A stretch of DNA of 64,000 nucleotides from Candidatus Thorarchaeota archaeon (GCA_016933575.1 JAFGAR010000070.1:1-64000), one strand, 5' to 3'; counted from the stretch's first letter, positions 34,509 to 59,742 are shown. Made by a program: numbers and translations. The notes: a model not told the origin generated them from the letters alone.

Positions 34509-35255
34509 TTACTCTGTTGCTTGTATATCCGCTTTTCTAATTTTCTTGCCTACCTGTGCCCAGTCTAAGCGGACAGCAAGATATACGGTCACAATGAGTA
34601 ACACAATACCCAGGACTTCCACTGTTGCTGAGATTGGAGTGACAGGTCCTCCGACTCCTAATAGCTCAATGAACCAGTCCAAGCTAAGACGTCCAGCCCA
34701 CGAAACAGCTGAGAGAAAGATAATCTCACCAATAAGACATGGCCAAAATAACTTCCACCATGAATATCTGGCTACACCCAAAGCAACCACTGCAGGGTCT
34801 AGAGGAAGTGGTGTGGATGCTAGAAGAAAGATTGCAGCTGGTGTGGCTCTAGGATAGGTTTCAATGAATCTACTGAATCCCTTAGTATTAGCATCATCAA
34901 CTAGACGTCTTCCCGCATAACCCAGAGCATAGCTTGTCATATCGCCAATCGTTGCTCCAATACCTGACAAGATCCCCACTACCCAGGGATCGAATATGAA
35001 AGGACCAACAATTCCATCGCGCAAACCTCCAAGTACAAATGGAACGCCAGCAAACGGAATCTCGACAACAACACTTGCACTTCCCAGCAGACACACGAGG
35101 AATGTTCCTGGGTAGCCCAAAACAACTGCAAAATCAGCGACCCATTGAAAGAAATTAGCTAGTGGACTAACAGCAGAAGGATACACCAAGAGGACTATCC
35201 AATACATGAAAGCAATTATCATAGAAGACGCAAATACTTGATCTGCACGTCTCAT
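34509..35255 (-). CDS. DedA/VTT-domain membrane protein (paralog 2)
   Basis: GIGATIGDMTSYALGYAGR, LASTPLPLD...LG..RY and GEII motifs. Confidence 0.85.
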   Translation of the reverse strand: MRRADQVFASSMIIAFMYWIVLLVYPSAVSPLANFFQWVADFAVVLGYPGTFLVCLLGSASVVVEIPFAGVPFVLGGLRDGIVGPFIFDPWVVGILSGIGATIGDMTSYALGYAGRRLVDDANTKGFSRFIETYPRATPAAIFLLASTPLPLDPAVVALGVARYSWWKLFWPCLIGEIIFLSAVSWAGRLSLDWFIELLGVGGPVTPISATVEVLGIVLLIVTVYLAVRLDWAQVGKKIRKADIQATE

Positions 35256-35986
35256 TGATCTTTGTCCTCCTCCTTTGGTATGAGCATAGACCAGTTAATC
35301 GTAACTAGAAAATAGATTGCTATAATAATCAACAAAACACTTGATACCTCAATAGCCCTCGAAATAATGCTTGTCGGATCGGTACTGCCTATCAATGAAC
35401 CAATGAAATCCAACCCAATTCTACCCGACCATGCTACTCCAATCATGAACATTGTCTTTCCAAGGAATTGGGGCATCATCACCTTCCACCATGGATATCT
35501 TGCTGCTCCTAGTGGGACAATTAGGACATCATCAGGAAACGGTGTCACAGCAAGGAACCATAATACAAATGGTGTCGCCTTTGGATGTCTTTCCACATAT
35601 TTCCTGAAAGCATCCCTCTGGTTCTCTTCTATAAGCTGACCTCCACCATAACCCACAAAATAACTTATCATCTCTCCGAGCATTGCACCAAACCCAGAAA
35701 GGAGACCTACCAGCCATGGATCAAAAAGGAATTGACCAGTCATTTCGTCAGTCAATCCTCCAAGAATGAAAGTCACTCCCATATACGGGAATGGGAAGAG
35801 TACTGTAGCGTTTCCGATAAAGGAGATCAGCAGATCACCAGAGTATCCAAGTAGTAGGGAAAAATCTAGAAACCAGTTGTATACAAGTACTATCGGACTA
35901 GCTATCCCTGGAATTATGATTGAAATTACAAAATACGCTGCCAATGAGATGATCGCAAGTAGAAGGAATTTATCAGCTCTTCTCAT
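35252..35986 (-). CDS. DedA/VTT-domain membrane protein (paralog 1)
   Basis: GNATVLFPFP, GAMLGEMISYFVGYGG, LAVTPFPDD...LG..RY and GKT motifs. Confidence 0.88.
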   Translation of the reverse strand: MRRADKFLLLAIISLAAYFVISIIIPGIASPIVLVYNWFLDFSLLLGYSGDLLISFIGNATVLFPFPYMGVTFILGGLTDEMTGQFLFDPWLVGLLSGFGAMLGEMISYFVGYGGGQLIEENQRDAFRKYVERHPKATPFVLWFLAVTPFPDDVLIVPLGAARYPWWKVMMPQFLGKTMFMIGVAWSGRIGLDFIGSLIGSTDPTSIISRAIEVSSVLLIIIAIYFLVTINWSMLIPKEEDKDQ

Positions 35987-37365: not shown

Positions 37366-37668
37366 TTACTTCTCATCAAAGAGGGCATCTACAGCACCAA
37401 TAGCTCCTCGTGCCTCTTCACTAGTAAACTCGCCTAGTGAACCTGATTTTGCGATCTGTATTGTAACAACAGCTTGTTCATCTCTGGGTTGCATCTCCCA
37501 CGAAACATCGAACCCTGGTTGTTCAGCAATGAATTGCTTTAGCATATCGAGCCATGCTTCCTTGACGTCGTCTATCGTGATGTAAATGAACTCTATGAGT
37601 GGGATTGATATTTCGACCCTAAGAATACGTCCATCAAGGATGTAGTAGTTTTCAATGTCCCATGGCAT
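37366..37668 (-). CDS. Hypothetical protein
   Basis: 100-aa ORF with GAGG upstream, directly downstream of the large surface-protein genes. Confidence 0.65.
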   Translation of the reverse strand: MPWDIENYYILDGRILRVEISIPLIEFIYITIDDVKEAWLDMLKQFIAEQPGFDVSWEMQPRDEQAVVTIQIAKSGSLGEFTSEEARGAIGAVDALFDEK

Positions 37669-37730: not shown

Positions 37731-40700
37731 CTATTCTTCTGTTGTGTTATCTTTTTTGGGCTCTTCATCTTTCTTTGCCGTTAAGAGCGATTCAACATCC
37801 TTAACGAAGGCTTCCATTGGGTCAATCTCTTTCTCAGACTCAGAAGGTGGAGGTTCGATATCTACGTCCTTGTCGTGAGTTGGTTCTTCTTCTTTCTCTT
37901 CTTCTATATCCTCAGGCTCTTCTTCTGTAATCTCATCCTCTGGAACTGGTTCCATGTCTTCCTCAGACTCTTCGGTTGAAGGCCCTTCCATGATTTCTGT
38001 TGGCTCTCCATTAGAGAGACCCATCCCCTGTCGTTGAAGGACAGTCTGCACGCCGACTGGGACTATTGCGCCTTTGTCTTGAAGGGCTAACAGTCTATCC
38101 AGGATTTTAGCTTCGGATTCTTCGAGCATCTCAGAGAGTGGTGTCAACAGATTTCTGATGAAGAACTCTCCCCGTTCATCCCTGACTGCTGCAATGTAAT
38201 CAAGAATTCTTGCTTCAGTTTTCGAGACCTTTTGTGTTGGTCCAAACCTGTGCGGGAGCAGCCATGAATAATTGAATGCTGAATTCAATGTTGATACGAC
38301 CCATTCTGGGTCGAAGCAGTCGATAAGCCCAGTCCACCCATCAAGGTCTCTCTCATATTGATTCTCGAATAGTTCAACAAAGAATTGCAATCGGTCTTTT
38401 AGGAGGGGCGTCATCTCTCCCTCCAAAATGAGGATTCCTATGATCTTATCACCGCTATAGCTGTTCAATCGAAGTCCATGATATTGGATCTCTTCAAGAG
38501 TTCCACGTACGCCATCACCTTTGATTTCACCATATACACTCGTTATTGCTGCAATGAATCCGCTGATTAGGTCTGGTTGAATTCTTTCGTCAGTGAATGG
38601 ATGGTAGAAGACACAAGTTCCTCTATCGAGGTAAACTGCCATGAAATGTCGAAGTGACTCTAGGTCAACAAACATCTGAAGCTGGTTGTCAAGCGAAGAG
38701 CGAGCTGCACGCTTCTTTGGTTTAATCTTACGATTATATGTGGCAGCTACAATTCCAAGGACTACAAATGAGATTAGTATGAGTCGTCCTATATTGTCCA
38801 TGAAAAAGAAGTTGAAGAGAATTAGTAGTGGATTGGTTCCTGCTCCAACAGTTATTGCCTTTTCAGCGCTCCATAGTAGTCTACTTCCGTGATAATACGC
38901 TTCAGCTTGAATCGACTCGATACTTCCAGATGGAATCTCAAAATTCCATGTTGCAATACCATTTGTGTTTGTTGAGTCGTATTGTGAACTATCGTCTCTA
39001 ACGAGTTGAGTACCATTTACGAATGTAATTCTAACAACAAAATAGATGTCTTGTCCAACTACAGGCGTTCCTGTGTCATTATAACGTAATGTGGCAATTA
39101 GGCTTACAATTTGTCCCTCTATACTTGGGTCTCCCTCAGAAGTCAATTCAAGATTAACAGAACGTTTACCCTGAACGAGTAGTGAGAATGTGTCAGAGGC
39201 TGAGTTAGCCAAAGGTGCACTTGCCGCAATAGCTACCGTATAAGTTCCAGGCGTAAGATCGAGTAAAATTTCAATGCTGTAAACACCTGCTGAGTATGCT
39301 AATGTATAATCGACACCATCAAGGGTCATCACTACATTTGCTCCAGTTATTGGAGTGCTATAAAGCGAGTCTGAATACGTCACTGTAACTGTGAGATTCC
39401 ATTGTTCGTATTCTTGGTCGAGTGCGTCGATAGAGATAGTAGTAGTTGCTCGCACACTCAGGGTGAGAAAGACTGTAGTTGTTTCATATCCATATCTGAC
39501 CATGGTCACATTGACTTGATAAATCCCTGCAGTCTGAGGTGGTGCAATATTGACTGAATATTCTCCGACTGCATATACTGTTTCAATTCCATTGACTGTG
39601 ATATACAAGATAGCATCACTGATTATTGTACCAATCGAATCTCTTACAGTCATAGCCAGAGGCGCGTCTGTTGCATAATCTGTGGTCGCTGCGGAACTTG
39701 TCCACGAGTTTTCTAGCGAGGGAATATCCTCTGTCACATAGAGAGTCTGTGTTTCTTGTCCTTGGTCATAGCCATCTCTACTAGCTCGCACAGTGAGTGT
39801 TGTGGTACCAAGGTAATCACTACCATCCAGTGTGACTTCCCACTGCTCAGAAAGGGGATTATAGGTCATGTTTACTAGTGGATATCCAACGAATGTAACT
39901 CTGACCCAAGCATCGCTAATCGGGACAGAGTTGAAATTATATGTGACAGTTATCGTGATCTGTTCTATGTAGGTGATATTTCGATCTGTTGGGTTCCAAT
40001 CAACAGAGAATACAACTCCTGTCTCACTACTTACAGAGATCGTCAGTGTGTCATTATACTGAGGTGCATATCCTATCTTCCATGCACTAACGTTTAGTGA
40101 GATAATACCTGGGACACCAGTGAAATTCTCGCCATGCAATTCAATCCAATAGACCTCTGCTATACCGTCCCATGTGAGATTGTAGGTATGCGATTCAAAG
40201 GTGACATTCACCCATGCACCTGGAATACGTATATCATTCACATCCACGTAGGAAACTGTGAGATTTGTACTTTCCAAGTAAGAAATGTCATTACCCTGCA
40301 ACCAAGTCCAGTTAATCGGTTTAGTTTCATAGGTTAGGTCAATAGCGATTATTAGACTCTGATTTTCCAAAGCATACCCTTCTGCATAGATGTAAAGAAG
40401 ATGAATACATGATGACATCCCTGTTGTGTCTATATCCTTCGTCCACCTCCCATTTCCCTGATCATCCATAGTCGCATTGATTATCGCACCAAATGAATAT
40501 GTGACATCTGATAGGGAATCATCTATTCCTAGAAACGGAAATATGCAATCAAAATCAACACCTATTGAGAATGCTGAAGATGTATCAGCGTATGCTGAGA
40601 TACTATAATCATCAGCAACAAGAGTTGTTGAGTAGAACACGAAGACTTCTGTCACCAGATAGCCTGCTTCCAAACCGTTTGACCAGAACACTTCAATTGA

Positions 40701-42263
40701 ATATGTTCCATTATAATCTGCAATTGAGTCTATATTCCAGAGATAGTTTGTAAGACCTCCAGACACTGATACATTTGCAGGTGTATATGTAACCACGCCT
40801 CCGTACCAAATTGTGAGATTTGTCATTCCGCTTTCCTGAGGAGTGCCAATTCCATCTTCAACTGAAACATCAATATCGACGTCTGTGAGAATACTTACTT
40901 TATCTAGGATGGGAATTCCCGTAGAAGAATCAGAAAGATCTATTGCAGTGACATAATTATCTGCAGTATTGGTTAGAATCCAAGTGCCATTCGTCAAGTC
41001 CGTACAGTAAACTAGACTTCCAATCTTTGTGAAATGTCCATAATCAATACTAGTGCTATTGTATAGTCCGATTGGAGTCCAATCTGACGGTATTGAAACA
41101 TTCGCGAAATAAGTTGTTGTACCTGATGCTACTGGAAAGTCTAAAATCATTGAAACATTCCAATATACTTGATCTCCTGAATTTATCACATTCCAAATAG
41201 TTGATGCAGTGCTCTCTTTCTTATATTGGAGGGTTATGTTATAATCTATGGTAATCGACTGGTTCGATTGAAAATTAATTAATGCCATGTCATCATTTGA
41301 TGTGAATGACCAAGATGTTCCACTTAAGCTGGTTCCATTGCCTGTTAGGGCAATTTGCTCTGCGGTGGCATAAGTAAGAGGCGCATTTTCAGTCTTATTC
41401 CAAGGTGTATATGTATAGTTGAGTTCAGCTTCTCTTATTTGCCCTGCGTCATAGACATCCCAATCATTTGGAGGTGCTACGTCACGTAAGTGATAGCCAG
41501 TCTGAAGACCTGCATAGGGATACCTTGCTTCCCACCAGATTGAATTGAACACCCATTCATCCACTGGAAAAGGTAAGTATTGACCTATCATATTTGTCCC
41601 ATCTATAACTACATAGTAGAACGTACTCGCATTCATAATAGCTCCGTCTGGAGAACAATCGTGAGTTATTACTTGGTAAAAAGCAGTTTGACTGAATGGT
41701 GTTACCCATCCAGTGACATTAGTTTGTTTATCAGAAAAATTACTTCTCACAACGAGATATGCATGACCCAGAGTGGCTTCGTATTCTGGTGATCGGTAGG
41801 TAAGAGAGTAATTTTCCAGTTTTCCATCGTGAGGCTGATTGTAAAATTCTTGATACAATGCATCTGTTATCAATCCTGTATTATTCTCTATTTTGATGGC
41901 ATCATTAGGATTGATGTTGAATGTCTTACGTTCCGCTGTAGCATTGATATCACTTGCATTGATTTCTATACTAAATAGTGTCCATCCTGGAATTTGATAG
42001 GATGAAAGGTCCAATTGTTCTTGATGGAGTGCATTGTTATATGAGTTCAAAATACTCATTGACTGCCCATTAATGAATCGAGTCATTGATAACACGAGAT
42101 TAGTATCGACTCCATCATTTCCCACATCTGCAATTATTGAATGATCATAAAATGGATTTGAGGTATTAGTAATCGGAGTCACTGTTGAGGGATTAATATC
42201 TGCAATAACGGGAATTATCAGTATTAGCATAAATAAGATGATTGAACTCCGGGTCTTTCTCAT
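37731..42263 (-). CDS. Receptor-like type I membrane protein: signal peptide, head, about 6 Ig-like repeats, TM, cytoplasmic longin-like and wHTH-like domains, acidic tail
   Basis: N-terminal hydrophobic leader, many NxS/T sequons, TM followed by RKIKPKKR, cytoplasmic FMAVYLDRGTCVF...PDLISGFIAAITS..GE...LEEIQY...FENQY...WTG. Confidence 0.85.
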   Translation of the reverse strand: MRKTRSSIILFMLILIIPVIADINPSTVTPITNTSNPFYDHSIIADVGNDGVDTNLVLSMTRFINGQSMSILNSYNNALHQEQLDLSSYQIPGWTLFSIEINASDINATAERKTFNINPNDAIKIENNTGLITDALYQEFYNQPHDGKLENYSLTYRSPEYEATLGHAYLVVRSNFSDKQTNVTGWVTPFSQTAFYQVITHDCSPDGAIMNASTFYYVVIDGTNMIGQYLPFPVDEWVFNSIWWEARYPYAGLQTGYHLRDVAPPNDWDVYDAGQIREAELNYTYTPWNKTENAPLTYATAEQIALTGNGTSLSGTSWSFTSNDDMALINFQSNQSITIDYNITLQYKKESTASTIWNVINSGDQVYWNVSMILDFPVASGTTTYFANVSIPSDWTPIGLYNSTSIDYGHFTKIGSLVYCTDLTNGTWILTNTADNYVTAIDLSDSSTGIPILDKVSILTDVDIDVSVEDGIGTPQESGMTNLTIWYGGVVTYTPANVSVSGGLTNYLWNIDSIADYNGTYSIEVFWSNGLEAGYLVTEVFVFYSTTLVADDYSISAYADTSSAFSIGVDFDCIFPFLGIDDSLSDVTYSFGAIINATMDDQGNGRWTKDIDTTGMSSCIHLLYIYAEGYALENQSLIIAIDLTYETKPINWTWLQGNDISYLESTNLTVSYVDVNDIRIPGAWVNVTFESHTYNLTWDGIAEVYWIELHGENFTGVPGIISLNVSAWKIGYAPQYNDTLTISVSSETGVVFSVDWNPTDRNITYIEQITITVTYNFNSVPISDAWVRVTFVGYPLVNMTYNPLSEQWEVTLDGSDYLGTTTLTVRASRDGYDQGQETQTLYVTEDIPSLENSWTSSAATTDYATDAPLAMTVRDSIGTIISDAILYITVNGIETVYAVGEYSVNIAPPQTAGIYQVNVTMVRYGYETTTVFLTLSVRATTTISIDALDQEYEQWNLTVTVTYSDSLYSTPITGANVVMTLDGVDYTLAYSAGVYSIEILLDLTPGTYTVAIAASAPLANSASDTFSLLVQGKRSVNLELTSEGDPSIEGQIVSLIATLRYNDTGTPVVGQDIYFVVRITFVNGTQLVRDDSSQYDSTNTNGIATWNFEIPSGSIESIQAEAYYHGSRLLWSAEKAITVGAGTNPLLILFNFFFMDNIGRLILISFVVLGIVAATYNRKIKPKKRAARSSLDNQLQMFVDLESLRHFMAVYLDRGTCVFYHPFTDERIQPDLISGFIAAITSVYGEIKGDGVRGTLEEIQYHGLRLNSYSGDKIIGILILEGEMTPLLKDRLQFFVELFENQYERDLDGWTGLIDCFDPEWVVSTLNSAFNYSWLLPHRFGPTQKVSKTEARILDYIAAVRDERGEFFIRNLLTPLSEMLEESEAKILDRLLALQDKGAIVPVGVQTVLQRQGMGLSNGEPTEIMEGPSTEESEEDMEPVPEDEITEEEPEDIEEEKEEEPTHDKDVDIEPPPSESEKEIDPMEAFVKDVESLLTAKKDEEPKKDNTTEE

Positions 42264-42486
42264 ACTTCAGCCTCACATTGAAAGGTTCAACTATAGTTTG
42301 AACGTCTTAGAATTACTGAATCAATGGTTATTACATTTTGATTGTACGGACTATTAAGCCACTAACCATTAGTACAATTTCAATCTGCTATTGGTTTGCT
42401 AATTATATATAGATATCCTGATTCACTCAACCCTAAGTTATTCCGATTTTTAGAATAAACTGTCTATTTATTTCATATGTGCCAAT

Positions 42487-45400
42487 TTAATCCTTCTTCT
42501 TAATCAACCTCTTTGAGCCCTGGCGAACTTCCTCCAAACTGGAATCTGATTCTAACAAATCTTTTACAATAGACCCTGTCTTGCTAGAAGATAATCCCAA
42601 GCGTTCTGATATTTCCGCACGGGTTAATCCAGTATCACTATTCAATATCTCCTGCCTGGCACGATTTATTGGATCTGTTAATGATATTGATTCAACGGGA
42701 CTAACATTTGGTGTGGTTACTGGTGATGAGACATCTACAATTCCTGGTCCCCTTTTTCGTTTCATCAATGCTATAGCAAGAAGTGGAAATGAAACGCCTC
42801 CAGCTATTACTGCTATCATTACTGGATTGTTCAAGATTATGTCTAAGATACCAGAGTTTGGAGCTGTGATAGCTATGTGTCGGGGCGAAGATAATGCTAG
42901 CCACGTTGATAATGAGCCATTATATTGAACGACAATATCTAACGCAATTGCATCCAATGGCACAGTGAATTCGATTGTAGCCACTCCATCGCTGGAGGTC
43001 GATGCACCCATGATAGTAATTCGAGAACCATCTTCTGTAATAACAGTAATTGAGAATACTAGTTGAATACCACTAACTGGAGTACTTTGTTGATGAACTG
43101 TAGCTGTTACAAGAAGTACTTCGCCTGTCTGTATCTCTTCCACAGCAGATACTGAAATCGTATAGGTTGCTTTTTCCAGTATAACAAGATCAATGTATGC
43201 GATCTGAGTTTCGCAATCACTGGCTATTACTTCAAGCGACAGGTTGTATGTTCCTGGTACAAAAGTACTGAGCCAGATTGAAGTCGAATAATTCTGAGAG
43301 CCTGCTGAGTATACCAGCGAGTATTCAACACTATTTAGAACCACTTTCACATTGGCCCAATCAATTGGAATCATATTGTTCGTATCTGCTAACTTAATCG
43401 TGATTAGGATTGTTTCGTTTTCGTATTGGGAAATCTGTGAAGTGAATTCAATTTGGGTTGGTATTGGCATAACATCAATAATGACTTGACCAGTTCCGTT
43501 ATCATATCCTGCACACTCAAGAAGTATATTCAAAGTATAGCTTCCAGTGTGTACTGATCCACCTCCAATCTCAACAATATATGTCCCATTCCCTAAGTCT
43601 ATCACGTTACTAGTACTAATCCAGTCAATAGATGAGAGAGCCCCACTAATTCCACTATTTGTTCTTGTATCGAGGAATGTGAATCTAATGGAAGTAGACT
43701 CTCTTGCAAACATCACTAGAGGTTCGGGATTCACTACAATAGTGGGAATGAGTAAGATAGTAATTTCTAACATGTACGAATGTGTGGAATAGCCATAGGC
43801 TAATGTCGTGATGTTGAACGTATGTATACCAACGCCTAGGTCTTGTCCCTCAATATTTAGAACCCAATGGTCTGTACTCCACACTACACTCTGAGTCACT
43901 TCTTCTAGAGTGACAACACAAATGGCTCCTTGAATGATGCTCAAATTACTCATTCTATAGTAGATATCCGCCAGTTCATTTTCATCAAAATAGAACGTGC
44001 TTGTGGATGGTAAGACGCTCAATGTTGTGGATTCCTGAATGACTGTTAGAATGTTCGAATACCATCCGTCACTGTAACCCGTCATATTTGCAGTAACTGT
44101 AACATTCCATGTACCAAGGTCAATTTCCGATGCCAGAATACTAAAATGCCATTTCTTATCAATTGAATTATAGACAAGGTCATAGACTGTACCGTTGATT
44201 GAGAGTCGCACGGTTGCCCCAACTATTGGTTGAAAATCTTCAGTGTAAATGACCGTTAGATTTACAGTATCTGTATAGCTTGGTTGTAAGTTTCCCGGCT
44301 CCCAAGTCACAATAAATGAGTTTGCGGCAAGTGTCACATTTACTCCCAAAGTAAGGTTGGCTCGATGAGTGTAGCCATATAGCCATGCACTGATTGTAGC
44401 TTCGTAATAGCCTATGCCTAACTCATTACCGGAAATACTTATTCTCCAAGCATTTGATGAGTAAGTAAGATTGTAAATGTGCGTATCAATGGTCATATTG
44501 ACTATTGCTGTATCAGGAACATCTCCTCCATAGTATGTATAATCAACTACTAACGTCAGTACGCCTGTGTATTCGATTGTCACATTGCTTGGGTCCCAAA
44601 TCACGCTAAGTTGATCTGTAATCACTTCACTGACCATCAAGGTTTCTAGAGCTTCTGCATAAGTATAACCATAGGCATCTGCTCGAATGATAACTGTATG
44701 TTCACCTAAGTCAAGATTGATACCGGTCAAATTGAAGTACCAAAGATCTCCAGATGATAGTAATGGAATTGGAGTAGTTCCGTCGATTGAGATATTGATA
44801 TTAACTCCTGTTGGAACTGCTTGACCTGTTAGAACATAGAAGTAGTTAGCAGTGAGGTCTATCTGACCTAGATAGTCAATTGTAATTGAATTCCAATCAA
44901 GATCTAGATTAGTTATAGCCTCAATTATATTGAATTCAATTGAGGCGTTTACTGCAAACTGATACCCATATTTACTGATGTTTACAACAACGACATGATT
45001 ACCGAGATTAAATGAGTTGTTGAATTCAAACCAATAGACACCATTTGTTCCATGTAACACGTAAAGCGTTCCATTAATACTGATTGTCTTAAGCGTCGCG
45101 TTCTCGATGAGTGAACCATGGGAGTCTCGATATTCAATCTCAAGGATGATGCTCTCAGTCCAATCTATAGTATCTGTAAGCCAGGAAGCAATTGCTAGAG
45201 TTGGTTCTTCATCAACAGCAAGAGTTGTGGTTGCAAATTGACTTGAGTATACGTCCCCTGAAGCAAGTATACTCATGCTATAGTTACCTAATCCTGGAGG
45301 ATTCATATTTCCATAGAATTTATACTGATAACCTCCTATAGAACCATTCCATATTAGTGACCAATTATCAAACCCAATCGTGACATTTAGAATCCCTGTT

Positions 45401-48400
45401 GATATGCTAGTTCCATTACTCATCCTGTAGTAGACAGTTAAAGTTGTAGATTCAATAAAGGTGATTGAATTGCCATTGGACCATGTCACTTGGATAGTTG
45501 TCGGATCTTTGGTCAGAGTGAGGTACTCTGATGTGTTATGAGCGATTTTGAAACCATACTTTTTAGCATCAACCACAACTGTGTATGTTCCAAATCCCGG
45601 TGGAATATCCGATCCATTGAAGCAGATACCATATGAACCTTCAGTTGCATTCCATAGGAGATTCCAAGTTTCAATCTCGATAGTAACATTGACCGATGCT
45701 CCCAGAATTGGTGATGAATTACTCATCAGATAGTCTACAAACAAGTATGTGTATTCAAAATATGACACATTATTCTGATTTGGAGAACTCCATCTGGGTA
45801 TCAAAGTTGTTATTTCTTCGTTTATGTGGAGATTCAGATAATTGTCAGTCAGCCCAACAAATCCAAATCTTTCTGCTTTAATCTTCAATTCATGTGTTCC
45901 GAATCCAGGCAATGAGTCAAATCCATTGAAAACTAAACGATATGTTTCACTTAGACTATGCCAATGTAGCTCCCAGAACATAGTTGTATCGATGGTGACA
46001 TTGACAGTTGCAAGAGCGATTGGTGTACCATCCGATGTTGTATAGTTCACAACGAGGATTGTTGATTCAACATAAGAAATATTGTCTCCACCAATCCAAT
46101 AACAATCAATCATCACTGACTCGGATAGTATTCGTAATGTCTCTAAGTTATATTCAGCATCCTTATACCCTTCATGTAATATGTAAGTGCTAGAAATATA
46201 GAGTCTATGTGTTCCTAGACCTGGGGGATCCATATTACCAGTGAATGTGAATACATAGAGGTGTAGGTCTGAGTCGTACGTTGCTTCCCAGATATCCGTT
46301 CCAATTCGAATAGTCACGTACGCATCTTCAACAGGAGAACCATCTGATATGGAATAATTGATGTGGATTGTTGCACTCTCTGTGAAAGTAATGGTATTAT
46401 TTCCGTCCAACCATATGGCATGAAGTGTTGTTGCTTCTTGATTGAATGTGATGGACTGCGAAATGTCAATTTGAGAGAGATAGTTTGATTTCCATGCTTG
46501 GGCTAGCAAAGTATGAGGTCCAATCACAGGAATGGGGAAAGTATCCCCTGTGAAGACCACCTCATATGCTTTTTCCGCCTCATTCCAATTTGCAGGCCAA
46601 GTCAAGACATATGTAACATTCACTGTTGCCCCTAGTACTGCAGCACCACTTTCCAATCGGTAATATATCCTGAGTATTGTTGTTTCGAGGTATGTTATTG
46701 TATCGCTTGGTACCCATTCAAAGGAAATGGTCGTGTCTTCTCGTCGTATTGTGAATTTTTCTTCTAAATCGACAGATGGAAGATAGCCATAGCCAGAAGC
46801 ATTGATTAATACGTCAAAAGTATCAAAGTAAAAACTACTATCATTACCTCTAAACTCCCTTTCATACGCATTGCTAGTACTATTCCAGACGAGGTCCCAG
46901 AGAGTCCCATCTATCGTCACATTGAGCATTCCTGTTGTAATTGGTGTTGAGTTACTCATGATGTACTGAACAGATAGGATCGTTGTACTATAGTAGGTGA
47001 TATTATTACCATTAGTCCAAAAGATAACAAGACTGGTGGGTTCTAAGCCAATTGTCAGCGTTTCTGTATTATTTGATTGGTATTGGAAATCACTCTTTGA
47101 GGCATTGATGACTAGTGAATAGGTCATGAAATCTAGCGAGCTATCCGACCCTGAGAAAGTTCCTTCATAAGCGTGCGATTGAGAGTTCCATGTAAGATTC
47201 CACGTGACACTGTTTATTGTGACATTGACAACAGCATCGAGAATCCAAGTATCGTTATACATCATATAGAAGACTTGCAAAGTTGTATCTTCAACATAGG
47301 TGATATTATCACCATTGGTCCAAGTAATTGTCAATTTAGTCGGAATGACTGGAATTATCAATTCTTCATCGTTATTTGTCTGGTAACCGAATCCGTAACT
47401 CCAAGCTTGGACAATTACAGTATAGGTTCCAACTCCAGGATATACATCCGAACCATTGAATCTCAGTTGATAATATTCCGCAGACTCGTTCCAATACATC
47501 AACCATGTTCTTGAATTAACTGTTGCATTGATGTATTCTAACACTACTGGTTCATCATTGTCATAGTTGTACTCAGCAATCAGGTAAGTATACTCATAGA
47601 ATCCTGGGTTATTTACTCCATTTGCCCAGTAGACATACAGAGAAGTTGGTTCCTCAACAAGAGTGACTCTCTCAGTTGGATCCAATACTGCTTCAAATCC
47701 TAATCTTGATGCGTGAATAATTACGGTAAATGAGCCAAGTGCTGGTAGATCTTCAGATCCTTCAATATAGAGGTAGAATTTCTGCGCTGTTGAATTCCAT
47801 ACCATTGGCTTCAGAACACCTGCTACAGTTGCGTTGACAATGGCATCAGATATCGCACTATTGTTGTTATTCATGATATAATTTACAGTCAGGACACATC
47901 TACCCATGTAAGTAGTTTCATTCGTAGGAATCCATTGAACTATGAGTGTTGTTGCTTCATTTTCAATAGTAAGGGAATCGTTATCAAATACAGTAATGAA
48001 TCCATATCGAGAAGCGTTAATTGCAAGAGAGTGTGTTCCTAAGCCGGGCGGTGCATCACTTCCTGAGAATTCCCATCTATATGTCTGAGTTCCTCCATCC
48101 CAAGTAAGGTTCCATGTTGATACGCCAATCGTAATGTATACTATAGCACCTGAAATTGGTGTTCCATTAGACATTGTGTAATTGATTGAGATAATCGTTG
48201 ATTCAACATATGTTATTGTTGACGGACCTATCCATTGCGTATCAATGGTTGTTGGTTCTGGTCTTAATATCAGATCTTCATCTATATTCTCTTTATTGGC
48301 AAAACCGTACTTATCTGCTTTAATTGTCAGCTTATGCGTTCCAAAGCCTGGAGGCAAATCCGAACCATTGAATATCAAGATGTATGATTCTGATCCATCC

Positions 48401-51078
48401 CAAATTAGATTCCACGAAGGATATCCGCTGATTGTTACATTCACCATAGCTCCTTCAATAGGTGAACCATCACTCATATTGTAGGAAACGATTAGAGTAG
48501 TCTGCTGTACAAATGTGATATTGTAATCTGAGGACCATTTGATTGTTAATGAGGTTGACTCAATATTAATAGTAAATGAAGTAGTGCTGTTTGAATGGTT
48601 TTCAAATCCGAATTTTCCAGCCGCAATATTGATGCTATGTGTTCCCAATCCTGGAAGTACGTCACTACCATTAACAGTCAGATAGTATAGCTTTGAAATT
48701 GGATTCCAGTGTAGTTCCCAAGGTGTTGTATCAATTGTTACATTTACGATAGCATCCAGTACTGGTTGACCATCAGACATTGTATAATTTACAATTAACA
48801 TGGAGTCCTGTACATAGGTGATAACATCTCCATTTAACCAAGAAAATGTGAGAGAAGTGTACTCCTTATGAATCGTAAGTGTCTGAGTTGTGTCACTCTG
48901 TTCTCTATATCCTTCCCGCCAAGCCTCTATCTCGAGATTGAAGGCTCCAAATCCTGGGAATACATCAGTTCCATTGAACGTGATTCTATAGAGGCTTAGG
49001 TCTCCATCCCAATGGAGTGAATAAGGTGTTCCATCAATCGTTACATTGACAGTTGCATCAGTAACCGGGATTCCACCAACTCGATTGTAAGTCACTAACA
49101 GACTTGTTGTTTGGACATAAGAGATGTTGTTTGTATTCGACCATTGTACAAAAAGCGGTTGTGTATCATGAATGAGTAATGCATCAATAATTAAACTCTG
49201 GTTTTCTATTGCATACCCTTCAGCATAGACTCTAACAGTATAAATCCCTGAAGATTTTCCTGATGTATCAATAGATGCTGTCCAAATTCCATTACTCAAA
49301 TCTATCAGACTTGTATTAGTGCCTCCATCAAATGAATACATGACCATAGCATAAGCACCATCCAGTCCTTGAGGCGTGAATGTATCTGTTAGATTGACAC
49401 TAATGGAAAAACTACTGTCAGTATATGCATCTATTTGATATGACGAAGCAGAGAAACTAGTAGGATAATAAAGGACCAGCTCTTTAGTTCTGTATCCTGC
49501 TTCTGTGCCATTACACCAGTATTCAGTAATTGTATACTGACCATTTGAAAGTGTAGTTGAACTAATGTCCCATAAGTAATGTGATTTTCCAGTGACTACT
49601 GACTGATTATTTGGAGCCCATATTTTGGAACTAAGATGAAAGATCGTGAGATTCGTAGTACCTGTACCCACGGGATTTAGATCTATATCTGTCAAAGTTG
49701 AATTGATATTAATTTCAGAATCTATGGAAGTCTTCGTAAAAACCTCAATATCATTTTCTGCATCATAAGTCTGTATTGAAGTTAGATAATTTCGAGATGA
49801 GGATATCAGAGTCCAAGTATCGTTGCTTAATTCAGAGCATTGGATGACACTTTGAAGTCTTTCATAGCTCGAGTGGTTTGTAGATGGTGCTGATGATTTG
49901 TAGAGTCCTGACACAATCCATGTTGTTGGTATTGTTAGATTGAGAAATTTCCGTTCAGCTATCATTGGATATTCAATAGCAGTTGATACATTCCATTCTA
50001 TATCTTGTCCCGACTCGGTGGCAAACCAATTTGAAGGCGATGATACTGATTTTCTGTAAGAAAGTACCATTGTATAGGAAATCTCAACAGACTGACTTGA
50101 GTCAAATTCTATGCAATCAATATTATCTTCATCAGAAAAAATCCATGTTAATCCTGAAAGCGCTGATGTGTTACCCCTAATATTTACACTCGTTGGATCC
50201 AAGTAGACAAGAGCATTGTTACTGGTCTTATTCCATGGTGTGTATGTATAGTTGAGTTCGGCTTCTCTCATCTGCCCAGAATCATATTGATCCCAAATAC
50301 CATCTCTAATGTGATATCCTGTTTCAAGTCCGAGATAGGGATATTGTGCCCTCCAGTATATTTTATTGAATTTCCATTGACCATCGTAAATCCCCTCCAT
50401 TCCAGTCCCATCGATAACAACATAGTATTTAGTACTAGCATTTAGAATTGCATTATCAAGTGAGCACTCATGAGTGATTGTCACCCAAGACAATCCTTGT
50501 TGAAACGGAGTTATCCATGAAGTGATATTTGTCTGTTTATCTGAATAATCACTCCTTACCACGAGGTAAGCATGTCCAAGATCCGGATAGTATGGATATA
50601 CTAGTGCACCAAATGTGTAATTTTCTAATTTTCCATCGTGTGGTTGACTATAAAATTCCTGATATAATGCATCGTATACGAGCCCTGAAACGTTTTGAGT
50701 ATTAATGTAGTTATTTGGATTCACACTGAGCCTTTCATGCTCTGCAACAGCAGTGATCGAACCAACTTCTATTGAAACCTCATACAGTTCCCATGATGGA
50801 ATATAATATTCTAAAAGGTTCAACTCTCCTACATGCTGATTAATGTTAGAATAGGAGTTTACAATATGCAAGGATTGTGTACTAATGTTACGTGTCATGA
50901 AAGCTATTGAGTCTGATATACTTCCTAATCCTTCGACCGATGCTAAGGTTGAAAAATTGTGAAAAGTACTATCCTGATTAAATTCACTGGCATAGCTGTT
51001 TTCTAAAGTCGTATTTCCTGTTGGAACAGATAATAAGCTAATCATAAGGAAGACCATTAAAACAGCCAAACGTTTCAT
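42487..51078 (-). CDS. Giant receptor-like type I membrane protein: signal peptide, head, about 22 Ig-like repeats, TM, C-terminal winged HTH
   Basis: MKRLAVLMVFLMISLL leader, ~100-aa repeats, TM plus KRKR, and C-terminal EILNSDTGLTRAEISERLGLSSSKTGSIVKDL...VRQGSKRLI. Confidence 0.88.
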   Translation of the reverse strand: MKRLAVLMVFLMISLLSVPTGNTTLENSYASEFNQDSTFHNFSTLASVEGLGSISDSIAFMTRNISTQSLHIVNSYSNINQHVGELNLLEYYIPSWELYEVSIEVGSITAVAEHERLSVNPNNYINTQNVSGLVYDALYQEFYSQPHDGKLENYTFGALVYPYYPDLGHAYLVVRSDYSDKQTNITSWITPFQQGLSWVTITHECSLDNAILNASTKYYVVIDGTGMEGIYDGQWKFNKIYWRAQYPYLGLETGYHIRDGIWDQYDSGQMREAELNYTYTPWNKTSNNALVYLDPTSVNIRGNTSALSGLTWIFSDEDNIDCIEFDSSQSVEISYTMVLSYRKSVSSPSNWFATESGQDIEWNVSTAIEYPMIAERKFLNLTIPTTWIVSGLYKSSAPSTNHSSYERLQSVIQCSELSNDTWTLISSSRNYLTSIQTYDAENDIEVFTKTSIDSEININSTLTDIDLNPVGTGTTNLTIFHLSSKIWAPNNQSVVTGKSHYLWDISSTTLSNGQYTITEYWCNGTEAGYRTKELVLYYPTSFSASSYQIDAYTDSSFSISVNLTDTFTPQGLDGAYAMVMYSFDGGTNTSLIDLSNGIWTASIDTSGKSSGIYTVRVYAEGYAIENQSLIIDALLIHDTQPLFVQWSNTNNISYVQTTSLLVTYNRVGGIPVTDATVNVTIDGTPYSLHWDGDLSLYRITFNGTDVFPGFGAFNLEIEAWREGYREQSDTTQTLTIHKEYTSLTFSWLNGDVITYVQDSMLIVNYTMSDGQPVLDAIVNVTIDTTPWELHWNPISKLYYLTVNGSDVLPGLGTHSINIAAGKFGFENHSNSTTSFTINIESTSLTIKWSSDYNITFVQQTTLIVSYNMSDGSPIEGAMVNVTISGYPSWNLIWDGSESYILIFNGSDLPPGFGTHKLTIKADKYGFANKENIDEDLILRPEPTTIDTQWIGPSTITYVESTIISINYTMSNGTPISGAIVYITIGVSTWNLTWDGGTQTYRWEFSGSDAPPGLGTHSLAINASRYGFITVFDNDSLTIENEATTLIVQWIPTNETTYMGRCVLTVNYIMNNNNSAISDAIVNATVAGVLKPMVWNSTAQKFYLYIEGSEDLPALGSFTVIIHASRLGFEAVLDPTERVTLVEEPTSLYVYWANGVNNPGFYEYTYLIAEYNYDNDEPVVLEYINATVNSRTWLMYWNESAEYYQLRFNGSDVYPGVGTYTVIVQAWSYGFGYQTNNDEELIIPVIPTKLTITWTNGDNITYVEDTTLQVFYMMYNDTWILDAVVNVTINSVTWNLTWNSQSHAYEGTFSGSDSSLDFMTYSLVINASKSDFQYQSNNTETLTIGLEPTSLVIFWTNGNNITYYSTTILSVQYIMSNSTPITTGMLNVTIDGTLWDLVWNSTSNAYEREFRGNDSSFYFDTFDVLINASGYGYLPSVDLEEKFTIRREDTTISFEWVPSDTITYLETTILRIYYRLESGAAVLGATVNVTYVLTWPANWNEAEKAYEVVFTGDTFPIPVIGPHTLLAQAWKSNYLSQIDISQSITFNQEATTLHAIWLDGNNTITFTESATIHINYSISDGSPVEDAYVTIRIGTDIWEATYDSDLHLYVFTFTGNMDPPGLGTHRLYISSTYILHEGYKDAEYNLETLRILSESVMIDCYWIGGDNISYVESTILVVNYTTSDGTPIALATVNVTIDTTMFWELHWHSLSETYRLVFNGFDSLPGFGTHELKIKAERFGFVGLTDNYLNLHINEEITTLIPRWSSPNQNNVSYFEYTYLFVDYLMSNSSPILGASVNVTIEIETWNLLWNATEGSYGICFNGSDIPPGFGTYTVVVDAKKYGFKIAHNTSEYLTLTKDPTTIQVTWSNGNSITFIESTTLTVYYRMSNGTSISTGILNVTIGFDNWSLIWNGSIGGYQYKFYGNMNPPGLGNYSMSILASGDVYSSQFATTTLAVDEEPTLAIASWLTDTIDWTESIILEIEYRDSHGSLIENATLKTISINGTLYVLHGTNGVYWFEFNNSFNLGNHVVVVNISKYGYQFAVNASIEFNIIEAITNLDLDWNSITIDYLGQIDLTANYFYVLTGQAVPTGVNINISIDGTTPIPLLSSGDLWYFNLTGINLDLGEHTVIIRADAYGYTYAEALETLMVSEVITDQLSVIWDPSNVTIEYTGVLTLVVDYTYYGGDVPDTAIVNMTIDTHIYNLTYSSNAWRISISGNELGIGYYEATISAWLYGYTHRANLTLGVNVTLAANSFIVTWEPGNLQPSYTDTVNLTVIYTEDFQPIVGATVRLSINGTVYDLVYNSIDKKWHFSILASEIDLGTWNVTVTANMTGYSDGWYSNILTVIQESTTLSVLPSTSTFYFDENELADIYYRMSNLSIIQGAICVVTLEEVTQSVVWSTDHWVLNIEGQDLGVGIHTFNITTLAYGYSTHSYMLEITILLIPTIVVNPEPLVMFARESTSIRFTFLDTRTNSGISGALSSIDWISTSNVIDLGNGTYIVEIGGGSVHTGSYTLNILLECAGYDNGTGQVIIDVMPIPTQIEFTSQISQYENETILITIKLADTNNMIPIDWANVKVVLNSVEYSLVYSAGSQNYSTSIWLSTFVPGTYNLSLEVIASDCETQIAYIDLVILEKATYTISVSAVEEIQTGEVLLVTATVHQQSTPVSGIQLVFSITVITEDGSRITIMGASTSSDGVATIEFTVPLDAIALDIVVQYNGSLSTWLALSSPRHIAITAPNSGILDIILNNPVMIAVIAGGVSFPLLAIALMKRKRGPGIVDVSSPVTTPNVSPVESISLTDPINRARQEILNSDTGLTRAEISERLGLSSSKTGSIVKDLLESDSSLEEVRQGSKRLIKKKD
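45230..49170 (-). repeat. 13 well-conserved ~100-aa Ig-like tandem protein repeats
   Basis: Consensus E.T.L...W..G..ITY.E.T.L.V.Y.MS.G.PI..A.VNVTI....W.L.WN.....Y...F.GSD..PG.GT..L.I.A...G(F/Y). Confidence 0.85.
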
Positions 51079-51201: not shown

Positions 51202-51711
51202 TTACGTATAGTATGATGGACCTGTTTCGGTTGATTCAACAGGTTTTGCTCCTTGTTGACCTGTGATATCATTGAGCAATGCAATCACCATGTCAATGGC
51301 ACTATGGAGTCTTCTTACTGTATTCCATAGTATCTGTTCGGAGAATGCATCATCATAGATTCTATCCGAAACAACAAAACCCGGACCCTGTGGTTGAGGT
51401 CCTTGTTGTCCAGGTCGTGGTTGGACAAATCCCAGATTGATATTCTGTGTGAAGCTGAACTTCAATGCATCCATCTGGAACTGACGGAGCTTCTCTGCAG
51501 TCAACAATTTCTGGTGTTGCGGTGATATCATGATTTGCGACTCAAACTGGATATACTTCTGATCATTTGGTCGCACAACAGTGAAGAAGAAGCGCATGAA
51601 CTTGACTTTGTAAAGAAACTCAGCTCTCGGGTTGGAGATACTCTCGACTTTTGTGCCTTCTCTCGAGAACCATTCTCTTATTGCTTCCTTGTAGTAATCT
51701 GAACCTTCCAC
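51202..51711 (-). CDS. DUF2299/YbjN-like protein
   Basis: IREWF..EG.KV, V.RP, ISPQH and DRIYDDAFSEQ..WNT.RR pattern. Confidence 0.6.
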   Translation of the reverse strand: MEGSDYYKEAIREWFSREGTKVESISNPRAEFLYKVKFMRFFFTVVRPNDQKYIQFESQIMISPQHQKLLTAEKLRQFQMDALKFSFTQNINLGFVQPRPGQQGPQPQGPGFVVSDRIYDDAFSEQILWNTVRRLHSAIDMVIALLNDITGQQGAKPVESTETGPSYYT

Positions 51712-55211: not shown

Positions 55212-56735
55212 CTATTTGCGGGACTGTAGAACTAAGTATACGACTCCTCCAGAGAAGGCTGAAACGATTCTTCTCATTCTATATTGATCGCCAAGGCTAT
55301 CAATCTCACCTTGTGAGATCTTGGCTCGTGCAACTTCTTCAGCTATGAATCTCGAGACCCATGGTAAATCTACTAAGGCAGACCCAATTCCTGTAAGCTC
55401 AAGAATTCGAAATGAAGTCTCAAAACAGAGTTCCTCTGTGAATTTATCAACTTGATTTCCAAGGGTTTCAGTGTGTTTTTCAATCAAATCAGATATGGCA
55501 TTGAAAGCTTCAACGATTTCTTCGATTAATTCTTCTGAAGATATCGTATCGGTCTTGGATTCTCCAAGATGTTGTTTAAGATTTGTAAGAACAACTCGAA
55601 ATCGCCTCTCTGGGGATATGTGAGGCTTTTCACCAATGCGTGCACGTCGTTTACAATCTGTGAATTCTTCATAGAGCATTAGTGCTCTGTCATCGGACTC
55701 TTTTACGGCATTTGTGATTTCGATATTCTCGCCATTCAATAGATTGATGAATGCATCAAGTTCCTCATTCTTTCCCTTTCCAAACCGACTTCTAAGTAAG
55801 TCATTATAGTAATCTGTAATCTTCTTCACTAGGAATGATAGATAATCCCATTCAGTCCAAGACTCTGTTATTCCCTGACTCTGTGTCGTATAAAGTGAAC
55901 AAGTAGTCATTTGTGATGCTGCTCTTCGTAGAACATCGAGAGTTGCTATCAGTCTTGTGAAAACCCTAGCTGTTCCAACTAATGGCCAATCAAATGGTTT
56001 GCTTGAACCGCTGCCTGCAATTTGATATGTAAGCGACGTTTGTGCATGCATTGCAATGATATACAATGTTGTTTCTTCGACAAGTTTTGAATCCTGAAGA
56101 CTAAAGACTAAATCAAGATCGAACGGGAAATCGCAAGCTTTCATTAAAATGAGCGAAACTAAAGATCTCAATCGGATTGTTCTAATTGTTTCATCAATAG
56201 AGAGACCCCTGACAATACCTGAAATATCGAAGAATTCGTCACTAATCCCCCGATTTACAAGCTCCAAGGAAATAAATCGGCTAAGATCTGCTCTTGATTC
56301 GTCAGAGCGAAGAAGATAGTCGACTAGAATTTCTATATGCTGTTTTTCAATCTCACTTGGCAGTGTTGTTGGACTTATCGATACTTTGGGTAGAATCATC
56401 AACCACAACATAGCAAGTGCATTTCGTTTTCCGGTAAGAATCGCTTGTTCTCCTGTTTCAAGTGTTTCACTTACCTGTCTGAATCCAACCCAACTTGGAA
56501 TTGCCATTAAGAATTCAACAATATCGTCATTGTCCAGAGCCTTGTATAGGATATGTTTCTTCACTAAATTAAGAATCTCGAATGGATTTGTCATGACTTC
56601 TGAAAAACCTACAATCTGCAATTCTTCTCTTATCTCGAGTGCATCTTTCTTTTGCCAATCTGCGAGCACCCGATAGATATAGCTTTGATGAAGGTTACTC
56701 ACGATGGATTTAGCAATCGCTGCAAGTTCGTTCAA
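55212..56735 (-). CDS. Hypothetical alpha-helical protein
   Basis: 507-aa ORF, TTG start with AAGGAGG upstream, TTGA overlap with the previous gene. Confidence 0.75.
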   Translation of the reverse strand: MNELAAIAKSIVSNLHQSYIYRVLADWQKKDALEIREELQIVGFSEVMTNPFEILNLVKKHILYKALDNDDIVEFLMAIPSWVGFRQVSETLETGEQAILTGKRNALAMLWLMILPKVSISPTTLPSEIEKQHIEILVDYLLRSDESRADLSRFISLELVNRGISDEFFDISGIVRGLSIDETIRTIRLRSLVSLILMKACDFPFDLDLVFSLQDSKLVEETTLYIIAMHAQTSLTYQIAGSGSSKPFDWPLVGTARVFTRLIATLDVLRRAASQMTTCSLYTTQSQGITESWTEWDYLSFLVKKITDYYNDLLRSRFGKGKNEELDAFINLLNGENIEITNAVKESDDRALMLYEEFTDCKRRARIGEKPHISPERRFRVVLTNLKQHLGESKTDTISSEELIEEIVEAFNAISDLIEKHTETLGNQVDKFTEELCFETSFRILELTGIGSALVDLPWVSRFIAEEVARAKISQGEIDSLGDQYRMRRIVSAFSGGVVYLVLQSRK

Positions 56736-57850
56736 GAGGATGCCTCCTTAGATAATATGTCGAGAACATTCTCTTGAGTGGTACTCCCCTCTAGACCAAT
56801 CTCTATGAAATGGAGCATCTCCATTATTGCTCCTTCCACATTTGTTTCTATTCCAGAACCCATAAGTTTAGTGAATGTGAGTTTGTTTAGTTGAACTTCT
56901 GTATCCACTTCAAGGGGGCATGAGATTCCTGATTCGGTGCCAAGATCAAGGACACCATCAAGCCCTCTATATTCAACCTCTATCACAGTACCATATGGAT
57001 GTTTCCTATTTCTAAGGTAAATTCGTCTACGTGGATTCAATCCAAAGAAATCAATATCATCCAATAGCTTGACAAGTCTTGTTCTTAGGAAGGAGCTAGC
57101 TGCATATGCCTTCATCAGGTTCCCGTATGGTATTTGCTCGGAGATTCGTCGTGCCAGTTCTATCTCTTGACTGTAGTTCACATCTTTTTTGGATATGCCA
57201 GTATCTCTCAGGAAATCTTGAAAGTGAAAGGTCCCAAGATTTTTGAAATCAATTTGAATCGACATCTTACCACCTTTCTGACCCCGTACAAATCCCTTTG
57301 TTACATCAAGCGTTCGGACATCTTCAGGTCGAAAACTAGAAAGTGTCATTCCAAATTTCTCGTTCTGAATGACTTCTATTAGAACTGCATCTACGGATGT
57401 TTGTTGTGTCGAGCAATAAAATAGTCCTGGAATAAAGGCATAGAGATTCTGATCATCTAGACTTGCTGCAAGACTATCAGTAAGGATAGATGAATAAGAG
57501 GGATCGATATGTAGTCCTTCTTCTTGTTTTCCTGCTGACGCAATCAGAGCATCTTCTCTGTGTTTGTAGATATCCGATAATAAAGCATCACTTACGTCAG
57601 AAAGAGCATCAGTAAATTTCAGGGGATCATCGAGGTTTGAACTAGCTGTTAAATCTGAAGTAGCCTTTCCTCCAATCAAAAGACTATCACTCGGTTCTTT
57701 GATATCAATTGCATTTTGTAATGATGGCATCGAATATCCGACACCATTGAAATAATCAGGAACTGATATCCCGATAAGCCATTCATCTTCAGGAAGTACA
57801 CTCTCTTGTATCTCAATCAATCTGAGTCGTTTCTTCCTGTTCGTTGTCAA
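56732..57850 (-). CDS. Hypothetical protein
   Basis: 372-aa ORF with no recognised motif. Confidence 0.75.
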   Translation of the reverse strand: MTTNRKKRLRLIEIQESVLPEDEWLIGISVPDYFNGVGYSMPSLQNAIDIKEPSDSLLIGGKATSDLTASSNLDDPLKFTDALSDVSDALLSDIYKHREDALIASAGKQEEGLHIDPSYSSILTDSLAASLDDQNLYAFIPGLFYCSTQQTSVDAVLIEVIQNEKFGMTLSSFRPEDVRTLDVTKGFVRGQKGGKMSIQIDFKNLGTFHFQDFLRDTGISKKDVNYSQEIELARRISEQIPYGNLMKAYAASSFLRTRLVKLLDDIDFFGLNPRRRIYLRNRKHPYGTVIEVEYRGLDGVLDLGTESGISCPLEVDTEVQLNKLTFTKLMGSGIETNVEGAIMEMLHFIEIGLEGSTTQENVLDILSKEASS

Positions 57851-59730: not shown

Positions 59731-59742
59731 AGTTTTTCCTCA

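Follow-up and report, generated by a model that had tools for sequence, protein, structure and literature searches.

A tandem pair of paralogous, predicted surface proteins with different cytoplasmic modules in a Thorarchaeon

The tandem gene pair and its products

We analysed a 64,000-nucleotide stretch of DNA from Candidatus Thorarchaeota archaeon (GCA_016933575.1 JAFGAR010000070.1:1-64000; this whole stretch is called the window below), in which two large paralogous genes lie in tandem on the minus strand. The upstream gene (42487..51078, minus strand) encodes a protein of 2863 amino acids (aa), called here the long paralogue (P0002), and the orthologous open frames of 2630-3371 aa carry the same tail. 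The downstream gene (37731..42263, minus strand), separated from the first by 223 nt, encodes the short paralogue (P0001; 1510 aa), for which 87 homologues were found. A note made earlier by a model from the sequence alone (the earlier note) had described a pair of paralogous, receptor-like proteins in a probable Asgard archaeon. Translation recovered both open reading frames (ORFs), every motif quoted in that note appears in the BLASTP alignment of the two proteins, and the source names of the 87 homologues, which are all Thorarchaeota, Sifarchaeia or Promethearchaeota, agree with the proposed origin.

The two proteins are 37% identical across 1053 aa (BLASTP) and their N-terminal heads are 44-45% identical. 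No other gene in the whole 3.47-Mb assembly carries this head. As judged from the alignments, homology extends from the signal peptide to the membrane, and the differences lie in the number of repeats and in the tail. Both proteins start with a basic n-region and a hydrophobic, signal-like segment, and in both a single transmembrane (TM) helix, with a basic cluster directly after it, lies close to the C-terminus. In the short paralogue the TM helix was located by hydropathy at about residues 1153-1176 (38736..38807, minus strand) and is followed by KIKPKKRAAR; in the long paralogue it was located by hydropathy and orthologue alignment at about residues 2751-2773 (42760..42828, minus strand) and is followed by KRKRG. 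The signal peptides and the single TM segment with a basic stop-transfer sequence that the earlier note had claimed were thus both found.

N-glycosylation sequons (NxS/T) are distributed asymmetrically about the TM helix. There are 35 on its N-terminal side in the short paralogue and 98 in the long one (3.0 and 3.6 per 100 aa), whereas on its C-terminal side the 337 aa of the short tail hold only 2 and the 92 aa of the long tail only 1. Because of this asymmetry, together with the positive-inside rule, the sequences indicate that both paralogues are type I proteins with cytoplasmic tails, that is, with the tails inside the cell as the earlier note had supposed and not outside it, the location that the note had named as fatal to its proposal. 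The two proteins have a signal-like N-terminus, 35 and 98 predicted extracellular sequons and a C-terminal TM helix; folded cytoplasmic tails of this size would be unusual among archaeal S-layer and surface glycoproteins. An S-layer protein with a PGF-CTERM-type anchor was considered and rejected, as the C-terminus consists of a TM helix and a folded tail.

Ectodomains and cytoplasmic tails

The head of about 620 aa was modelled with AlphaFold2 using an alignment of 42 homologues, and the model was all-beta with a mean predicted local distance difference test (pLDDT) score of 88. In the short paralogue it comprises a jelly-roll, lectin-like tip (residues 47-365; 41169..42125, minus strand), which is the fastest-evolving part of the protein, and three immunoglobulin (Ig)/macroglobulin (MG)-like domains (residues 366-650; 40314..41168, minus strand). 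The head of the long paralogue (residues 34-642; 49153..50979, minus strand), which is 45% identical to that of the short one, is inferred to have the same fold, with a jelly-roll tip and Ig/MG-like domains. A fold search of the head in the ESM Atlas returned generic Ig/MG clusters only, and these matches suggest a binding tip without naming its ligand.

Between head and membrane stands a stalk built mainly of a repeat of about 101 aa, which was traced with an iterated hidden Markov model (HMM). Nineteen copies were detected in the long paralogue, 18 of them contiguous at residues 643-2442 (43753..49152, minus strand; domain E-values 1e-20 to 1e-37), and four in the short paralogue at residues 651-1031. 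The rest of the long stalk (42844..43752, minus strand) consists of divergent beta domains, a further repeat at residues 2539-2634 and a membrane-proximal domain, and we read the uncovered stretch 2443-2538 as an additional divergent domain. In the short paralogue the four repeats are followed by a membrane-proximal beta domain (residues 1032-1140; repeats and domain together 38844..40313, minus strand). The membrane-proximal domain is common to both paralogues (27% identity over 79 aa, E 3e-5). In total the stalk has about 21 domains in the long protein and about 5 in the short one, and each head adds about three Ig/MG-like domains. The earlier note had proposed a homologous head of about 540 aa and about 22 and 6 Ig-like repeats; the homology of the heads stood while their length had to be revised upwards, and the repeat numbers were close to those found. 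Tandem Repeats Finder found no stalk repeats at the DNA level, so the copies appear to be old and diverged. Among orthologues the stalk varies freely in length, from 3 to 13 repeats. When the ectodomains were scanned with Pfam, matches to CarboxypepD_reg and Invasin_D3 were obtained, both below threshold.

The tail of the short paralogue was modelled from 22 sequences (residues 1140-1510, pLDDT 77). In the model the TM helix runs on, unbroken, as a long helix into the cytoplasm and leads into a beta-beta-alpha-beta-beta-alpha-alpha domain, which is followed by a unit of three helices and a strand. The first domain, with its sheet sandwiched by helices, belongs at the level of fold to the longin superfamily (juxtamembrane helix and longin domain, residues 1177-1335; 38259..38735, minus strand). 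The second is winged-helix-like (residues 1338-1411; 38031..38252, minus strand). After it come an acidic, Pro/Glu-rich, disordered linker (residues 1412-1477) and a terminal amphipathic helix (residues 1478-1500), which together span 37764..38030 (minus strand) and carry a net charge of -32; pLDDT was below 50 in the linker (about 65 residues) and about 70-75 in the terminal helix. The model therefore contains each of the parts that the earlier note had listed, namely a longin-like domain, a winged-helix-like region and an acidic tail, and adds the terminal helix. Further, a profile of the short tail aligned in hhalign with a soluble protein of 300 aa that the same genome encodes (L007; Prob 95.3, E 2e-8, 188 columns). 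This protein matches Fuz_longin_1 (26.8, cutoff 26.1) and HTH_47 (29, cutoff 27.1), both above the gathering score, and the winged-helix-like unit aligns with its HTH_47-positive part. The identification of the short tail as a longin domain plus a winged helix is thus supported by the predicted fold and by one transitive sequence link. A search of PDB sequences with the tail-alignment profile gave chance-level matches only. Scores in a feature search of the ESM Atlas with the short tail were 0.76, and we treat these matches as leads only.

In the terminal helix an F and a V are near-invariant, within the pattern F..[DE]V..L[LI]. The helix of P0001 (F..DVE.LL; residues 1478-1500, window 37764-37832, minus strand) fits the eukaryotic acidic-dileucine consensus [DE]xxxL[LI]; this is a resemblance at the level of a motif and may be due to chance. 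The same tail also carries a sigma-adaptin-like longin fold. Soluble longin plus winged-helix proteins are encoded elsewhere in the same genome, at L008 1471-3176 (G000:C138, ~176.9-178.6 kb) and L007 1480-2382 (G000:C156). The genes for two soluble proteins of this kind (291 and 275 aa) lie side by side with almost no gap, and the two resemble a heterodimer pair in the style of NPRL2/NPRL3.

The tail of the long paralogue is laid out as the TM helix, a linker of about 30 residues and a unit of about 60 aa. This unit (residues 2803-2863; 42490..42672, minus strand) was identified as a winged helix-turn-helix (wHTH), as the earlier note had read it, by a match of the isolated tail to the Lrp/AsnC-type Pfam family HTH_24 (24.5 bits, gathering cutoff 21.9); MarR_2 and DUF7343 matched more weakly. 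The alignment of the long tails of six orthologues has 20 invariant columns and the near-invariant pattern GLTR..S..L.LSS.K.G..V.DLL.SD....E.R....R.I. The invariant columns include a Lys at the start of helix 3 (K99) and two Arg in the wing (R118 and R123), and the net charge of the wHTH is +2. In the TM helix of the same six sequences a GG is conserved and a Pro is often present. In hhalign, the long tail showed no homology to the short tail or to the soluble longin plus winged-helix paralogue beyond a low-probability match of the TM segment, and so gave no indication that the two winged helices share an ancestor. A word-indexed search for relatives of the long tail found three other long proteins and no shorter or soluble ones; this search missed P0026 and the orthologue in contig L002, the latter of which was found by synteny. 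Prediction of a complex between the two tails (P0001 1175-1420 and P0002 2768-2863) was run without controls, and its score of 0.00 counts neither for nor against binding.

Conservation, distribution and gene context

An exhaustive HMMER search with the short tail found 497 representatives at E<=1e-3, in Thorarchaeota, Lokiarchaeota (including the cultured Lokiarchaeum ossiferum, WP_371805894.1, with the tail at about residues 2016-2248), Sigynarchaeota, Harpocratesius and other Asgard archaea. Among the best 150 matches, 52 carry any part of the head described here; in many others the ectodomain is a different one, and there are also short TM-anchored forms and soluble ones. In long proteins the module is always C-terminal to a TM helix. 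The near-invariant columns of the family alignment include LISGF, W..G and LPH, and the short paralogue has the whole set of family features (single TM helix, basic cluster, longin domain, winged helix, and the LPH and W.G motifs). A shape search of the ESM Atlas likewise returned Asgard clusters that have the whole tail in common. One tail is therefore found on many heads, and in this pair one head is found on two tails, which agrees with the modular architecture that the earlier note had proposed.

We calculated the median identity to P0001 for each part of the short paralogue among 56 full-length orthologues. It was 35% in the jelly-roll tip, 48% in the Ig/MG domains of the head, 44% in the stalk, 60% in the TM and juxtamembrane segment, 89.5% in the longin domain, 70% in the winged helix and 65% in the terminal helix. 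Constraint is thus highest by far in the cytoplasmic module and lowest in the outermost tip. The tails are the best-conserved parts, and not unconserved appendages of ordinary adhesins, a possibility that the earlier note had raised against itself.

The distribution of the two tails was examined in a class sample of 81 genomes from 17 genera, in which all counts are lower bounds, as giant repeat genes assemble poorly. The longin tail was present in at least 64 genomes and 16 genera, nearly always in a single copy. The wHTH tail was present in at least 24 genomes and four genera, always in one copy, and ended open frames of 2630-3371 aa wherever the assembly was complete. In all 14 genomes with both tails on one contig, the two genes had the same orientation, the long one lay upstream and 3.7-4.8 kb separated the tails; the earlier note had called for such a survey, and the tandem order proved to be conserved. 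In a maximum-likelihood tree of the heads, rooted at its midpoint only, the long forms (P0002, P0026, P0028 and P0032) make up one clade (99/99) nested among the short forms. These relationships fit one tandem duplication that was followed by expansion of the stalk and a change of tail. We read the short protein as the form found throughout the family, mostly in one copy, and the long protein as a lineage-specific tandem duplicate. The new element is the conserved tandem paralogue with a wHTH tail. One further protein, P0073 (2558 aa, JGI contig, C-terminus incomplete), has a head that groups with the short form P0055, outside the long-form clade. This placement may mean that the expansion happened twice independently, or that tandem heads exchanged sequence by gene conversion.

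Several neighbours of the pair are conserved in position. An ORF of 100 aa lies 62 nt 3' of the short paralogue (37366..37668, minus strand), and two other Thorarchaeota contigs have a counterpart of 78% identity in this place. We detected no TM helix in it and no Pfam family matched it; it may be an operon member or a cytoplasmic partner of the short paralogue. Immediately 5' of the long paralogue is a DUF2299 gene (51202..51711, minus strand; Pfam PF10061), whose position is kept in contigs L001 and L002. The gene order DUF2299, long paralogue, short paralogue, ORF of about 100 aa, LarA and two VTT genes is kept in three other contigs (L001-L003). The two VTT-domain genes (34509-35986, minus strand) are in tandem, encode membrane proteins of the DedA/VMP1/TMEM41 type and keep their synteny with the pair. 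In a more distant Thorarchaeon, the longin-tailed gene stands alone in another gene context. The spacer of 223 nt between the two paralogues contains an AT-rich, TATA-like stretch, which suggests separate promoters for the two genes. A scan for bacterial promoters and terminators gave results at the level of shuffled sequence; it was built for bacteria and is not applicable to archaea.

Other features of the window include a multi-PAS/GAF histidine kinase of 1335 aa (HisKA and HATPase_c; 14172-18179, plus strand) and two adjacent, paralogous M28 peptidase genes (57901-61611 and 55212-57850, both minus strand), one of which has a bacterial TSP3 repeat. The peptidase pair is followed by two overlapping genes (372 and 507 aa) without a Pfam family, and that pair is also kept in L001.

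Interpretation and comparison with known systems

With moderate confidence, we interpret the two proteins as a pair of surface binding or contact proteins whose tails reach partners in the cytoplasm, with the longin domain as a docking platform. Both would be type I, heavily N-glycosylated proteins with a fast-evolving, lectin-like tip, an Ig-like stalk and a slowly evolving tail. The tip would bind an external ligand, probably a glycan or the surface of another cell, and the tails would link the proteins to cytoplasmic partners. By analogy with eukaryotes, the longin domain may be a docking platform, possibly dimeric, for a small GTPase or an adaptor, and the wHTH of the long tail may be a protein-docking unit or a membrane-tethered, nucleic-acid-binding unit. 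The long protein would have kept the head and the membrane-proximal domain while its stalk grew to about 21 domains and its tail was exchanged for the small wHTH.

Several observations weigh against this interpretation. Residues 1175-1420 of P0001 had no Pfam longin match, and the longin assignment of the short tail depends on the fold and on a single transitive profile link. In a Pfam scan of 42 diverse tail members no model covered the membrane-tail family, P0001 and 40 others being without a match. The short-tail winged helix has a net charge of 0 and the longin domain one of -10, so DNA binding by this winged helix, as judged from its sequence, is unlikely. In the long tail, the HTH_24 match spans profile positions 10-44 (35 of 48), and in the full-length protein the score falls to 18.5 bits, below the cutoff. 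Further, no small-GTPase, roadblock or longin gene was found within about 15 kb on either side of the pair.

The alternatives overlap in part with this interpretation and with one another. It is possible, though rather unlikely, that the two are structural envelope proteins or adhesins, whose tails serve only anchoring, sorting, clustering or quality control (for example, by longin-mediated dimerisation of the anchor) and pass no signal inwards. Adhesins and S-layer-associated proteins typically have Ig/MG-like stalks, a heavy load of sequons and a jelly-roll tip, as here; the stalk length is free among orthologues, and the genes around the pair are metabolic (POR, a nitrilase-type CN hydrolase and LarA), with no signalling genes found adjacent to it. 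However, a mere anchor would not need about 340 cytoplasmic residues conserved far above the ectodomain (89.5% in the longin domain and 35% in the tip), and the same tail is retained on unrelated ectodomains across Asgard classes. The soluble longin plus winged-helix paralogues also indicate a protein-interaction function, which would be common to cytoplasmic proteins. We regard it as less probable still that the long paralogue is a membrane-tethered transcription factor with the ectodomain as its sensor, whose wHTH would bind DNA from its place at the membrane, as in ToxR and CadC, or after regulated intramembrane proteolysis. The match of the isolated tail to HTH_24 above the gathering score, the weaker matches to MarR_2 and DUF7343 and the invariant K99, R118 and R123 are consistent with such a function, as is the TM helix with its conserved GG and frequent Pro, a trait of many intramembrane-protease substrates. 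The GG..S of this helix can equally be read as a helix-packing motif, however, and the net charge of the wHTH is only +2, the linker to the membrane is only about 30 residues long, no protease gene was found adjacent to the pair, and no soluble relatives of this wHTH were found in a search of limited sensitivity. In addition, winged-helix domains in Asgard and eukaryotic systems often bind protein, as in ESCRT-II and NPRL2/3.

The fixed tandem order raises the question of whether the two proteins act as one heteromeric receptor, pairing through heads or tails and giving longin and wHTH outputs at two heights. The order is kept in 14 of 14 judgeable genomes from four genera, and wherever the assembly permitted the test, each contig with the long form also had the short one. 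Further, the heads are still 44-45% identical, and the tails are complementary in charge, with -32 in the acidic linker of the short tail and conserved basic residues in the long tail. Most genera have the short form only, however, so the short form works alone; shared regulation or plain local duplication could also explain the conserved order, and the TATA-like stretch in the spacer points to separate promoters. We consider such a receptor improbable. A bolder proposal, which we also hold to be very doubtful as a whole, is a two-tier contact receptor that presents the same head at about 20 nm and about 80 nm. In this proposal the longin platform would recruit or regulate a small GTPase, the wHTH would bind DNA or the partner's tail, and the [DE]xxxL[LI]-like terminal helix (F..DVE.LL) would dock, in cis or in trans, into a longin pocket like that of sigma-adaptin, so that the pair would be a prokaryotic forerunner of receptor-adaptor-GTPase wiring.

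The pair offers several ways into the biology of Asgard archaea, whose cells have no endomembranes and yet encode many proteins of the longin, roadblock and small-GTPase kinds. A longin domain held directly beneath the membrane, and conserved better than any other part of the surface protein to which it belongs, is a concrete and testable site at which such machinery could work, and the homologous tail in the cultured Lokiarchaeum ossiferum makes the test practical. The tandem paralogue is a natural experiment: its head is the same, its stalk is four times as long and its tail has been exchanged, so that a comparison of the two proteins could tell apart what each of these parts does. The tip, which evolves fast, is a candidate for the recognition of partners or viruses in syntrophic Asgard archaea.

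Among known systems, the ectodomains recall giant repeat adhesins and MG-domain proteins such as invasin/intimin, SraP, Bap and the MG domains of alpha2-macroglobulin and complement. The pair has no family membership among these at the sequence level beyond the sub-threshold matches to Invasin_D3 and CarboxypepD_reg. Unlike this pair, those proteins are anchored by the outer membrane, by sortase or by secretion and have no folded cytoplasmic module. In Loki cells, which have no S-layer, 'complex surface proteins' were seen (PMC9834061). The long paralogue is analogous to bacterial membrane-bound one-component regulators of the ToxR/CadC/TcpP type, in which one TM helix likewise connects a sensor outside the cytoplasm with a wHTH inside it. 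The ToxR-type regulators, however, are type II proteins in which the wHTH is N-terminal and of OmpR type and the periplasmic domains are small, whereas the long paralogue is predicted to be type I, with a C-terminal, HTH_24-like wHTH of about 60 aa and an ectodomain of 2750 aa; its topology, the position of its wHTH and its HTH_24 rather than OmpR type thus set it outside that family.

Asgard longins are described as soluble proteins and as fusions to GTPases, TRAPPC3 and two-component domains in the parts of the reports that we consulted (Liu et al., bioRxiv 10.1101/2020.10.19.343400; Tran et al. 2024, PMC10933270). In the literature searched, the coverage of which was incomplete and does not prove absence, we found no single-pass surface giant described as having a longin domain for its cytoplasmic tail. 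The longin and roadblock eukaryotic signature proteins of these accounts include 'NPRL2-like longin' proteins with varied fusions; here the predicted longin is the cytoplasmic tail of a surface protein. The closest eukaryotic longins are the LD1 domain of the tri-longin Rab guanine nucleotide exchange factor (GEF) subunits Fuzzy, Mon1 and HPS1 (Pfam Fuz_longin_1) and the N-terminal domains of the sigma and mu subunits of AP complexes. The eukaryotic proteins are soluble subunits of GEFs, GTPase-activating proteins or coats; in the short paralogue, in contrast, the predicted longin sits directly under the TM helix of a giant glycoprotein.

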